Shown here: one piece after another, positions 59,701 through 64,000 of the stretch
Numbering within the stretch: the stretch's first letter is position 1
Layout of the letters: each line of letters opens with the position of its first letter
Assembly: GCA_000165345.1 (NCBI GenBank)
Contig: CM000434.1
Coordinates: 1,268,858 to 1,332,857, forward strand
Reading direction: 5' to 3'
Length of the DNA stretch: 64,000 nt
Made by a program: the position numbers

Positions 59701-62700
59701 GGCAAAGTAATTATTTTAAAAATGAATAGATTTTTTTTTTTTTTTTTTAGAAATATATTAATTTTTTTAACTTTGAAAAAACAAAAATTAATAGATTAAC
59801 CTTGATTAAGATAAAACCATGATTGGATTAAACAGATTATAAAATGCAAAAAATAAATATTAAAGAAAATATTGAATTTTATTCAATTTATTTTGACAAT
59901 AATCAAGAAATAATATATTAAAAAAATAAATAATTAGAAAAAAAAAATCATAAAAGCAAAATTGATAAAAAAATAACTTACAATAGAAAATTAATAACTA
60001 AAATTAATTTTTATTATTTTAATAAATTGTTTTATTATTTTTTTTTAACTAGAATGCAGGAGAAAAAACGAACTTTTATTCTTAATTTGCAATATTCTAA
60101 CAAATACAAAAATTATTAGATTTTTCTTCAACGATCATTATCAATTCCTATATTTTAAAGATCTTCAATTTATATAAAAGAAATGATTGAAATTTTTTTT
60201 TTTTAATAAATATTAAATTATTATTTTTATTAGTCTTTTTAAATAATTAAAGATGGATTGAAAAAAAAAAAAAAAAAATTATTAATAAATGTATAATTAA
60301 TAAATTTTGGATTACATTATGTATTTTCAATTCACTATATGTTTTTATATTTTTATGATTGAATAAAGAATCGGAAGAATTGAATTTAGTAAAATTTTGT
60401 GGAACATAGTTTGATAGATAATCAAGAGTAACTTTCTCTTTAGAATAAGGAGATTGAACAGCATGCAAGAATATATTAGAATTTTTATAAATATGTTTGA
60501 GCCAATGAAAAAATTTATGATATTTAAGTTTTTTTCACAAAATGGATAGTTTTATTTTTCTCATTAAAATTATTTGTTTGATCTTGAATTTTAGATGAAA
60601 AATAAAAAAATTTTTCAGTTACATCAATTTCTGGTTCATTGTGAGTATCAAGAATTGATTCTTTAGCAGTATTAAATGAAGTTTCCTTAATTTTTATTGA
60701 ATTAAAATAAAATAATTTATTCCAAAATTTAAGTATATTTTTAGCTAAAATTTAAACATTTTTTCTATTAGAAACAACATAAAGATAAATTCCAGATAAA
60801 TGGCTATTTTTTCCTTCTTCTTGTGTGTGAATAATATATCCAAGTTGTTTTTCCAAACTAATTTTTTTTTTTTTGTAAAATAAAGTTGAAATAATTGAAG
60901 TTAGAATTTTAGTTAAAATATAATTTTTAAAATGACTATATTCAGTTATTTGCATGAAAGCAGCACTGTCATAATTTTTTGATATTTTATAATAATAAAT
61001 CTTGGAACCTTTTTTAAGAGAGAATAAATCTAACATTTAAAAATTAAGAATTGAATTAGAGGATTTCGTTGAAAGTAAAGAATTTCTTAAATTTTTTTTT
61101 TTTTTTTTTGGGAATTCAATTGGTGATTTTGATTTTCTATTTTTCCAGTAAAAAATTGATAGAGAAAATAAAAGAAAGAAGTAGAATATTCAATCATTTT
61201 TTTGATTCATAAATAATAGATAAAAACAAATTATCATTTTCCAGTAAATAGGTTGATGTTGGTTTATGAATTAATTTTAAAGATTGTATTGGGTTTATAT
61301 TTCCATAAAAAAATTCCTTCAAATTGTAATTGGTCAAAAAGAATTTAGAAAAATGTATGAACTCATTAAAATCAATAATTTCCAGTCTAGATTATTGCTT
61401 TTCTAATGTAAATTATTGATTTAGAATAATTTTATTGTGCATAAATAAAATTTTATTACCAACTTCTGAATTAATTTGTTTTTATTTTTTTTTTTCAAGA
61501 TGTATTTTAAGATTTTCTTTTTCTGATATAAAATCGGTTTCAGTGATATAAATTAAAAAATTTGATATAAATACTTATAAATTGGGAATAATTAGCTCAA
61601 TTTTATCAGTAAAACCATATAATTGAAATATTAATTGATTTCTTATGTTAGGATTATAAAAAAATTTTACAATATCAATTGAGGTATGATAAAGTGCGAA
61701 TTCAATTTTATAAAAATGTTTTTAAAATAGTTTGTCAAATAAGGATGAGAATAATTCAAAAAGCAAATAGATTCCAACAGTGTCTAATGGGAAATTTGAA
61801 AATTTGCTATTAATTATATTGATGGGGAAAATGAATCTAAATTGAATACTTGATTTAAGATCATTGCCATCTTTAGAGGGATAATAATAGAAATTGTTAT
61901 ATTTCAAAATTTCTTGCTGAGTAAAATTGGGAATATTATCGTTATTACGAGCTTTATATTTTTTTTATGGTTTCTGAGAGTTTAATAGGAACTTCTTCTT
62001 TATCAATATTATCACAATTATTAGAAAAATCATTAGGTATGTAGGGATTAGGTTTAGGGTTTAGGTTTAGGGGTTTAGGTTTTAGGTTTAGGGTTTAGGT
62101 TTAGGTTTAGGTTTAGGTTTAGGTTTAGGGGTTTAGGTTTAGGTTTAGGTTTAGGTTTTTAGGTTTAGGTTTAGGTTTTAGGTTTAGGTTTAGGTTTAGG
62201 TTTTGGTTTAGGTTTAGGTTTAGGTTTAGGTTTAGGTTTTTAGGTTTAGGTTTTAGGTTTAGGTTTAGGTTTAGGTTTAGGTTTAGGTTTAGGGGTTAGG
62301 TTTTAGGGTTTTAGGTTTTAGGTTAGGTTTAGGTTTAGGTTTAGGTTTAGGTTTAGGTTTAGGTTTTAGGTTTAGGTTTTAGGTTTTTAGGTTTTAGGTT
62401 TAGGTTTAGGTTTAGGTTTAGGTTTAGGTTTTAGGTTTAGGTTTAGGTTTAGGTTTAGGTTTAGGTTTAGGTTTAGGTTTCAGGTTTTAGGTTTAGGTTT
62501 AGGTTTAGGTTTAGGTTTAGGGTTTAGGTTTAGGTTTACGGTTTAGGTTTAGGTTTAGGTTTTAGGTTTAGGTTTAGGTTTAGGTTTAGGTTTTAGGGTT
62601 TAGGTTTAGGTTTTTAGGTTTAGGTTTTACGGGTTTAGGTTTAGGTTTTAGGTCTAGGTTTAGGTTTAGGTTTAGGGTTTTAGGTTTAGGTTTTAGGTTT

Positions 62701-64000
62701 AGGTTTAGGTTTAGGTTCAGGTTTACGGGTTTAGGTTTCGGTTTTAGGGTTTAGGTTTTTAGGTTTTCGGTTTAGGTTTTAGGTTTTAGGTTTAGGGTTT
62801 TAGGTTTAGGTTTAGGTTTAGGTTTCGGTTTCGGTTTAGCGTTTAGGTTTCGGTTTTAGGTTTAGGTTTCGGTTTTCGGTTTAGGGTTTTAGGGTTTAGG
62901 TTTAGGGTTTTAGGTTTAGGTTTAGGTTTAGGTTTCGGTTTAGGTTCCAGGGGCTTTAGGGGCTTTAGGGTTTAGGTTTAGGCTTAGGTTTAGCGGGTTT
63001 AGGCTTAGGTTTAGTCTAGGTTTTAGGGTTTAGGTTTTAGGTTTAGGGTTCAGGCTTCGGTTCTAGGGTTTAGGTTTCAGGTTTCAGGGTCTAGGTTTAG
63101 CCTTAGGTTTAGGTTTAGGTTTAGGTTTAGGGGTTTAGGTTTAGGCTTAGGTTTCAGGTCTAGCTTCAGCGTTTAGGTTTAGGTTCAGGCTTAGGGTTTA
63201 GGTTTAGGTTTTAGGGTTTAGGTTTAGGGGTTTAGGTCTTTAGGTTTTAGGCTCAGGTTTAGGTTTTAGGTTTAGGTTTAGGCTTCGGTTTTAGGTTTTT
63301 AGGTTTTAGGTTTCAGGTTTAGGTTTAGGTTTAGGTTTAGCCTTCGGCTTAGGTTCAGCTTTAGGTTTAGGTTCTCGGTTTAGGTTTTAGGTTTTAGGTC
63401 CTAGGTTTAGGGTTTAGGTTTACGCTTAGGTTTAGGGGTTTAGGTTTAGGTCTAGGTTTAGGTCTCCGCTTAGGTTTAGGTTTAGGTTTAGGTTTAGGTT
63501 TAGGTTTAGGTTTAGGGTTTAGGTTTAGGTTTCGGGGTTTAGGTTTAGGTTTAGGGGTTTAGGTTTAGGGTTTAGGTTAGGTTTAGGTTTAGGTTTAGGT
63601 TTAGGGGTTTTAGGTTTAGGGGTTTAGGTTTAGGTTTAGGGGTTGGTTTAGGGGGGTTTTAGGTTTAGGTTTAGGGGGTTTAGGTTTAGGTTTAGGTTTA
63701 GGTTTAGGGGGTTTAGGGTTTAGGTTTAGTTTAGGCTTCGCGTTTAGGTTTTAGGTTTAGGGGTTTAGGTTTAGGTTTAGGTTTAGGTTTAGGTTTAGGG
63801 TTTTAGGTTTTAGGTTTAGGTTTAGGTTTAGGTTTAGGTTTAGGGGTTTAGGTTTAGGTTTAGGTTTAGGTTTTAGGTTTAGGTTTAGGTTTTAGGTTTT
63901 AGGTTTAGGTTTTAGGTTTAGGGGGTTTAGGGGTTTAGGTTTTAGGGGGTTTTAGGGTTTTAGGTTTAGGGCTCCTAGGGGCGGTTTCTTTTGACATAAG

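Follow-up and report, generated by a model that had tools for sequence, protein, structure and literature searches.

What brings a telomere to lie directly against half a gene? The question is raised by a stretch of 64,000 nucleotides (nt) of the Cryptosporidium parvum IOWA II reference (GenBank assembly GCA_000165345.1, contig CM000434.1, positions 1,268,858 to 1,332,857 of the forward strand), here called the window, which ends in telomere repeats. Just inside these repeats lies a truncated gene of the insulinase-like (INS, M16) family, which we name B, and further inwards a second INS gene, A, known as cgd6_5520-5510. The first-pass annotation of the window had proposed either that the chromosome broke and received a telomere de novo, or that the truncated terminal copy is a conserved one; both proved to hold, as one history. 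We consider it probable that B was broken long ago in the C. parvum lineage, that a new telomere closed the broken end and that this capped end was later inherited. The terminus is a genuine chromosome end of IOWA II; its telomere is the 5' telomere of chromosome 5, mis-scaffolded onto chromosome 6.

The similarity to INS proteins that the first pass had presumed for the region beside the telomere is significant. With P0021, an INS protein of C. parvum chromosome 3 (1176 amino acids, aa), as tblastn query, residues 596-1176 aligned with window 62046..60310 (E 1e-51 and 5e-45); a C. felis INS protein also matched the region (E 3e-24), and the conceptual B protein of C. hominis described below is 87-89% identical to the remnant. 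These searches and that with P0020 used default composition-corrected statistics, and for P0021, P0020 and C. hominis B the main high-scoring segment pairs (HSPs) reached 113-429 bits, against at most 29.6 bits for the best obtained in 100 shuffles of the subject. With composition-based statistics off, the C-terminal open reading frame (ORF) of gene A gave three collinear minus-strand HSPs, at 60325-60528, 60653-61090 and 61233-61568 (E 7e-14, 2e-9 and 6e-9). The C-terminal half of an INS gene had been placed on the minus strand at 60247-61907; half and strand stand, and the limits give way to those of Table 1, the homology continuing to the first telomere repeat instead of stopping 140 nt short of it. 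Homology is thus seen up to 62046 and repeats from 62048 on, so that the array directly abuts a 5'-truncated and decayed INS copy, as had been claimed.

Nearly exactly half of a protein of about 1170 aa is missing. The Peptidase_M16 domain (PF00675) is absent from B in the window, its place being taken by the telomere, and the HxxEH zinc-binding region is deleted; lacking PF00675, B is here a gene fragment and not a member protein of the INS family. The region is low in guanine plus cytosine (GC, about 20%) and offers only short minus-strand ORFs, of 73, 94, 47 and 61 aa. Pfam found nothing significant in these fragments, the best match being PqqF-like_C_4 (PF22456) in that of 94 aa (E 0.1), and it is tblastn with INS proteins of full length that reveals the homology. 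Across 55-64 kilobases (kb), a scan of Rfam matched no family.

The passage from gene to telomere is abrupt. The telomere begins at ...GTAGGGATT/AGGTTTAGG (the slash marks the breakpoint here and below), with repeats starting right at the breakpoint and no subtelomeric element between the array and the unique sequence of B. The last chromosomal bases, TT, inside a G/T-rich, telomere-like stretch containing TAGGG, match the repeat. The G-rich strand is the plus strand and runs 5' to 3' toward the window end, as it should for a telomere at the right-hand end of a chromosome.

The missing half is found in C. hominis. Homologous chromosome ends were retrieved via the proteins they encode, and one of them, a chromosome-level C. 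hominis record (L003), aligns to window 62049..54333 at 93%, then runs 2.39 kb further toward its own telomere. This extension holds the collinear N-terminal M16 half (INS residues ~1-595), with a signal-peptide-like start (MFINTMVLILLSLIFSLYS) and an upstream region; it is the very half that the first-pass annotation had supposed displaced by TTTAGG repeats, and which is absent from the window. Past the breakpoint C. hominis reads TAACTTAGGTGG..., and on the G-strand its ...TTAGGTATGTAGGGATT/TAACTTAGGTGGAAAAA stands against ...TTAGGTATGTAGGGATT/AGGTTTAGGGTTTAGG in the window. An INS query covers residues 47-1114 by tblastn across L003:857-4162, and Pfam recognises PF00675 (E 2.8e-17), PF05193 (E 1.9e-12) and PF22456 (E 2.4e-7) in the conceptual protein, whose zinc motif is HYLEQ, not HxxEH. 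One ORF of 701 codons (L003:1848..3953) reads across the C. parvum breakpoint, which falls at L003:2463. As C. hominis carries a full-length B with an ORF through this point, the full length is ancestral and the stump derived. The stretch L003:700-4180 is a nearly full-length, uncalled INS gene of about 1161 codons. By its gene order, which matches a published description (PMC11685829), the record would be that of the non-human-primate isolate C. hominis IbA12G3.

The junction is nucleotide-identical in the window, in Cryptosporidium sp. 43IA8 (L002), in a short Logan contig of the independent read set SRR5007564 (L009) and at the chromosome 6 end of C. parvum assembly GCA_048859185.1 (L001). 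In the window, L001 and L002 it adjoins the telomere repeats at the end of the record or window; L009, with only 28 nt of repeats, is 100% identical to the window over 1660 nt. The innermost order of repeat variants, TTTAGG TTTAGGG TTTAGG TTTAGGGG, is common to the window, L002 and L009. Over the 2446 nt beside the telomere L002 equals the window except for a deletion of 4 base pairs (bp; TATC) at window 60002, so that, for this locus, 'Cryptosporidium sp. 43IA8' amounts in essence to C. parvum. Such identity among L001, L002 and L009 indicates an old, inherited event and rules out both an artefact of assembly and a recent break peculiar to one isolate.

The first of these, by which telomeric reads would have been misjoined to an internal pseudogene in a Sanger-era scaffold, draws on real defects of the window: it has Ns, a 100-N gap and a mis-scaffolded terminal contig, and its array is unusually long (1.9 kb), degenerate in the middle and followed by 36 nt of non-telomeric sequence. 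Yet the chromosome-scale records L001, L002 and L003 all terminate in telomere repeats at this locus, three of the four sequences L001, L002, L003 and L009 have the exact junction, and the agreement of the window with L002 is broken by that single indel; we regard a misjoin as extremely improbable.

The remnant is moreover decayed. Relative to the open copy of C. parvum chromosome 6, B in the window carries six in-register stop codons and three frameshifting indels. A mutation of its original stop codon (60307-60309) lets the last ORF fragment extend to 60247. Changes were assigned to branches from three C-terminal copies of B, those of the window (chromosome 5 type), L001 (chromosome 6 type) and L003 (C. 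hominis). The window branch has 41 nonsynonymous and 12 synonymous changes with six new stops (ratio of nonsynonymous to synonymous rates, dN/dS, 0.81); the corresponding figures are 21, 14 and none on the L001 branch (dN/dS 0.35), and 10, 12 and none on that of C. hominis (dN/dS 0.20). Judging from these counts, the window copy appears to have drifted essentially neutrally over its whole branch, and C. hominis B to be under purifying selection. Disabled by mutation and relaxed in constraint, B in the window is a unitary pseudogene. This decay bears on the possibility that the break and the de novo telomere occurred recently in the sequenced line alone. A truly recent event does exist at the same end, in IOWA-ATCC, where 8.6 kb are gone and the telomere sits at a start codon (see below); but the B junction is common to four independent sequences, one of them from a different chromosome end, and a stump with so many stops and frameshifts, about 4% of branch-specific substitutions and a dN/dS close to neutrality makes a recent origin very improbable.

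The copy at the chromosome 6 end adds a later chapter. L001:487-2064 has an uninterrupted frame of 525 codons, with a PqqF-like_C_4 match above the gathering score (E 3.8e-9). Compared with L001, the window and L002 form a mosaic: identity is 100% over the 300 bp beside the telomere, falls to 92-94% across the body of B, returns to 100% in the A-B spacer and most of gene A, and drops to about 94% at the 3' end of A. This final drop is the pattern already published for the two copies of cgd6_5520-5510 (PMC6780254). Such a mosaic implies that chromosome ends have undergone gene conversion or terminal exchange with each other. Most simply, the terminal ~300 bp and the telomere would have been copied to chromosome 6 by later recombination inside B, and we infer that the spread went from chromosome 5 to chromosome 6, because the chromosome 5 copy looks neutral and a frameshift in an A8 run lies inside the shared 300 bp.

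Could recombination or break-induced replication also have supplied the telomere in the first place, captured from another end and not built by telomerase? The ends of chromosomes 5 and 6 do recombine here, as the mosaic of the window and L002 against L001 and the published mosaic of cgd6_5520-5510 (PMC6780254) both indicate, and the same junction on chromosome 6 is best explained by such copying. However, a captured telomere would bring donor subtelomeric sequence along, and the repeats instead follow directly on unique B sequence collinear with C. hominis; the homology at the breakpoint amounts to 1-2 nt. Recombination explains the spread of the junction, not its origin, and capture seems to us unlikely.

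The open frame of L001 raises another possibility, that the C-terminal half of B is still expressed in some copies as a shortened protein, a new product of the truncation. The frame itself, its PqqF-like_C_4 domain and the dN/dS of its branch go in that direction, the latter value being expected as well if the truncation came late on the L001 branch. In the window the frame is destroyed, its own stop codon included, and the shared A8 frameshift stands between junction and ORF. In L001 the telomere (junction at ~L001:345) lies 140 nt upstream of the ORF, which starts at 487, and the first in-frame ATG comes about 150 codons further in, with neither promoter nor signal peptide in evidence; none of the records L001, L002 and L003 has a gene call over B. 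A new product is thus very improbable.

The same chromosome end has been truncated a second time, independently and deeper. In C. parvum IOWA-ATCC (L007:1-820) a telomere of 814 nt directly abuts the ATG of a 294-aa gene (window 52563-53447), which occupies the place of cgd6_5500, known in the literature as NFDQ. At the junction the sequence is ...TTGGTCAT/AGGTTTAGGG (in longer context ...AAATTGGTCAT/AGGTTTAGGG), equivalent to window 53447/53448, where the window continues AATTACT (AATTACTATT...) and so represents the unbroken state. IOWA-ATCC is without the terminal 8.6 kb of the 2004 IOWA reference, that is copy 1 of gene A and the B stump, and its NFDQ gene has no upstream region left. The telomere begins in the T/AGG register, as at B: both polarised junctions have the form ...T/AGGTTTAGG, with a match of TT at the first and of T or TA at the second (n=2). 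Guo et al. (2015, PMC4407392) place telomere repeats next to cgd6_5460/5470 in human C. hominis, at an endpoint that differs between two isolates. Seen together with the B junction, the IOWA-ATCC and human C. hominis endpoints show that truncations capped by telomeres are nested one inside another at the 5' end of chromosome 5.

Several observations weigh against an old healed break in B as we propose it. The chromosome 6 copy has the same breakpoint, yet keeps its open frame and diverges by 6-7% in the body of B, so that one event on one chromosome is insufficient and a later recombination step has to be invoked. The microhomology at the junction is of 1-2 nt only (TT), a weak signature of telomerase, and the same register at two junctions is expected by chance about once in six. 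The array is partly degenerate, then gives way to the 36 non-telomeric nt. C. hominis B, from which the ancestral state is read, has itself three apparent frameshifts, at A9, T8 and T3/T4 runs. It may likewise be a pseudogene or, with a branch dN/dS of 0.20 and frameshifts limited to three, a live and unannotated gene.

Taking both sides together, the following succession still appears to us the probable one. From the telomere inward, the ancestral end would have carried a full-length B, gene A, the NFDQ gene and two MEDLE genes, an order of ancestral type that is still present in the monkey-derived C. hominis IbA12G3 (L003). In the C. parvum lineage the distal ~2.4 kb would have been lost to a double-strand break or to progressive terminal erosion, and with it the upstream region, the signal peptide and the N-terminal 595 codons of B, M16 domain included. 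Onto the resected 3' end ...GTAGGGATT, AGG(TTTAGG)n would then have been added directly, with telomerase as the most likely agent, in other words by telomere healing. Left without promoter, the C-terminal stump would have drifted neutrally, gathering stops and frameshifts and losing its own stop codon, and the healed end would have passed to several C. parvum-type isolates, its terminal ~300 bp and telomere being later transferred onto the chromosome 6 end. What we observe is a truncated gene, the polarity of the change, a junction known to the nucleotide and conserved, and a decayed stump; that telomerase made the addition, and when, is what we infer from them. The comparison of homologous ends suggested in the first pass thus gave a clear outcome, L003 having the missing half and L001, L002 and L009 the identical junction.

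A wider proposal is more tentative, and we would sooner doubt than endorse it: that B is still functional in the animal-adapted IbA12G3, in view of its dN/dS of 0.20, its signal peptide and frameshifts that, two of them in long homopolymers, could be errors of long reads, and was eliminated in C. parvum by healing, and that telomerase healing in the T/AGG register is the general mechanism behind the nested endpoints, from IbA12G3 to C. parvum IOWA II and 43IA8, then IOWA-ATCC, then human C. hominis. If true, endpoints now called gene 'gains and losses' and linked to host range would be products of healing.

Table 1. Features of the window discussed in the text
Feature	Coordinates	Strand	Remarks
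5'-truncated, decayed insulinase-like (M16) gene B	60307..62047	-	Corresponds to residues ~596-1176 of full-length INS
Proposed healing junction GTAGGGATT/AGGTTT	62039..62053	+	Last chromosomal base 62047
Telomere repeat array, (TTTAGG)n with TTTAGGG and TTTAGGGG variants	62048..63964	+	Tandem Repeats Finder (TRF) and repeat counts
Gene A (cgd6_5520-5510), telomeric insulinase-like protease	56234..59603	-	Peptidase_M16 and M16_C domains; 1119 aa when intact
AT-rich intergenic spacer, from B remnant to start codon of A	59604..60306	.	Comparison with C. parvum chromosome 6 copy
Scaffold gap, 100 N	33061-33160	.	Joins chromosome 6 core (1-33060) to 30.8 kb contig

The telomere array (Table 1) was delimited by TRF as a 6-nt TTAGGT/TTTAGG array at 62048-63922 (291 copies, 82% matches), which a row of variants extends to its end. 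Near the junction it is clean, with 28-29 perfect units per 200 nt; in the middle (~62650-63450) it falls to 16-22 units per 200 nt, with up to 18 C's and C-containing variants, a degeneracy that probably comes from low-quality reads. The last 36 nt of the window (63965-64000, GGCTCCTAGGGGCGGTTTCTTTTGACATAAG) could be vector, junk from a read end, or the start of further sequence past the window.

That this telomere belongs to chromosome 5 follows from the scaffold matches together with the report of Guo et al. (PMC4407392), which already describes the mis-scaffolding of the 2004 reference at chromosomes 5 and 6. On one side of the gap, window 25963-33060 is 99.96% identical to L001:8982-16080, in the chromosome 6 core of a C. 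parvum chromosome-level assembly. On the other, the 30.8 kb contig (33161-64000) represents the 5' end of chromosome 5 in inverted orientation: identity is 99.94% between window 42562-53448 and the initial 11.7 kb of the 1.086-Mb IOWA-ATCC chromosome (L007), and the contig also matches the start of chromosome 5 of 43IA8. GC falls from about 0.28-0.37 to 0.16-0.28 across the gap. Between 33161 and 56000 extends a long stretch of 16-28% GC with only five ORFs of at least 150 aa (429, 272, 229, 234 and 294 aa) and scattered Ns (44077, 44159, 48910-48917, 55496); spacers of this size with so few genes are unusual in a genome as compact as that of Cryptosporidium. The two MEDLE genes (cgd6_5480/5490) lie there on the plus strand, at 50033-50722 and 51249-51953; they are tandem paralogues with products ending in ...NINMEDLE, within repeat units of about 1 kb that are 88% identical to each other (49815-50847 and 51033-52073).

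Gene A is 92-93% identical to the 1119-aa "telomeric insulinase-like protease" of C. parvum and Cryptosporidium sp. 43IA8. The first-pass annotation took it for intact, but a low-quality patch at 57707-57890 breaks it in the window into one ORF of 570 aa and another of 490 aa, formerly listed as cgd6_5520 and cgd6_5510; compared with the intact 1119-aa gene of L002 the patch has four Ns (57724, 57767, 57806, 57884), 1-nt insertions and about seven substitutions, and the gene is intact in L001 too. This agrees with the published view of cgd6_5510 and cgd6_5520 as pieces of one gene split by errors of the 2004 reference, in which HLLKQ replaces HxxEH (PMC6415594; PMC6780254). Gene A of the window has this degenerate HLLKQ motif and is of the IIa-5520-5510-1 type (cf. 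PMC6780254); degenerate zinc motifs are reported for this subtelomeric INS group (PMC6780254). The spacer between B and A, presumed to be the promoter region of A, is mostly 97-100% identical to the C. parvum chromosome 6 copy, about 100 bp beside B falling in a 92% bin.

B had been taken for a paralogous copy of its neighbour, and its origin as a tandem duplicate of A was considered; we rejected it. The C. hominis B protein is 30% identical to gene A and 45-47% identical, over its full length, to the chromosome 3 INS proteins P0019-P0021, and the stump of the window behaves alike (27-42% to A against 42-50% to the chromosome 3 genes); B represents an INS lineage other than that of A. Another candidate, P0017 on a Logan contig (L008), 54% identical, was rejected as a B orthologue from another species, being closer to the chromosome 3 INS genes (55-58%) than to B; its contig has three tandem INS genes and no telomere. 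No B-type protein above 54% identity was found in a database of 5.8 billion protein sequences.

Other species give a less direct view of the junction. The C. tyzzeri contig (L004) begins inside gene A and is uninformative on it. The two C. meleagridis contigs (L005:329-17432 and L006:6089-9216) have heavily decayed B-like sequence proximal to A, 63% identical in DNA to C. hominis B and with no ORF of at least 100 aa; in L005 an inverted duplication near the chromosome end gives the order B'(-) A'(-) A(+) B(+). With B-like sequence in that position and this duplication, C. meleagridis was rejected as a simple outgroup for the junction.

Much around this locus is already published: telomere healing itself, the variation of INS and MEDLE copy number, the mis-scaffolded reference, and the two divergent copies of cgd6_5520-5510 (INS-19/INS-20) at the chromosome 5 and 6 ends of C. 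parvum (Zhang et al. 2019, PMC6780254; PMC6415594). The last two papers treat gene A only, and a word search of PMC6780254 found no mention of the B stump. A 2024 Nature Communications paper (PMC11685829) describes in C. hominis IbA12G3 an extra 16-kb 5' region of chromosome 5 with INS, NFDQ and MEDLE genes, a region that Guo et al. (PMC4407392) give as absent from human C. hominis; in the parts of both that were searched, terminal gene differences among lineages are described as insertion, deletion or duplication, with no description of nested telomere-capped endpoints or of a full-length B distal to CHM_5g5511. Literature searches for telomere healing in Cryptosporidium matched Plasmodium or yeast papers only, and the papers searched gave no description of the B stump, its full-length IbA12G3 counterpart, the exact junctions or the IOWA-ATCC truncation as such. 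B appears to be unannotated, and its stump appears to be a fresh, so far undescribed instance of a known process.

As a process, then, telomere healing is not new biology, and the interest of the case for Cryptosporidium genomics is moderate. Subtelomeric INS and MEDLE copy number nonetheless makes the chief difference in gene content between C. parvum, C. hominis and their subtypes, and its role in determining host range is under discussion (PMC4407392, PMC6780254, PMC11685829). For such gene loss this locus gives a mechanism at nucleotide level—terminal breakage, a new telomere cap, spread between chromosome ends—and it reveals one more member of the INS family. Two sequenced stocks of the one IOWA isolate differ by the second truncation, which removes the chromosome 5 copy of cgd6_5520-5510; this matters for gene-content comparisons or gene knock-outs based on these references.

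Among known genes the closest relatives of B are those of the chromosome 3 INS cluster (P0019-P0021, ~1176 aa), with which it shares the domain order M16, M16_C, PqqF-like_C_4. The cluster genes are internal, intact and annotated, whereas B is subtelomeric on chromosomes 5 and 6, unannotated, and truncated or decayed in C. parvum.

As to the process, the nearest known system is the healing of broken ends in Plasmodium falciparum. To our knowledge, canonical non-homologous end joining (NHEJ) is missing in Cryptosporidium. It is also reported missing in P. falciparum, where nine of nine healing events shared a single register determined by the RNA template of telomerase (Calhoun et al. 2017, PMC5550746). 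Both cases concern a haploid apicomplexan with a break within a member of a subtelomeric multigene family, and in both telomere repeats were added directly to unique sequence at a short repeat match. Each shows one register, GGGTT first in P. falciparum and AGG after T at the two polarised Cryptosporidium junctions. The differences are as clear. The Cryptosporidium events arose naturally, without induction in culture, have been inherited and are old on an evolutionary scale; their repeat is TTTAGG, the microhomology is of 1-2 nt, and the part of telomerase is deduced. Unlike the ends healed in P. falciparum, the healed Cryptosporidium end would later have been copied to a second chromosome.

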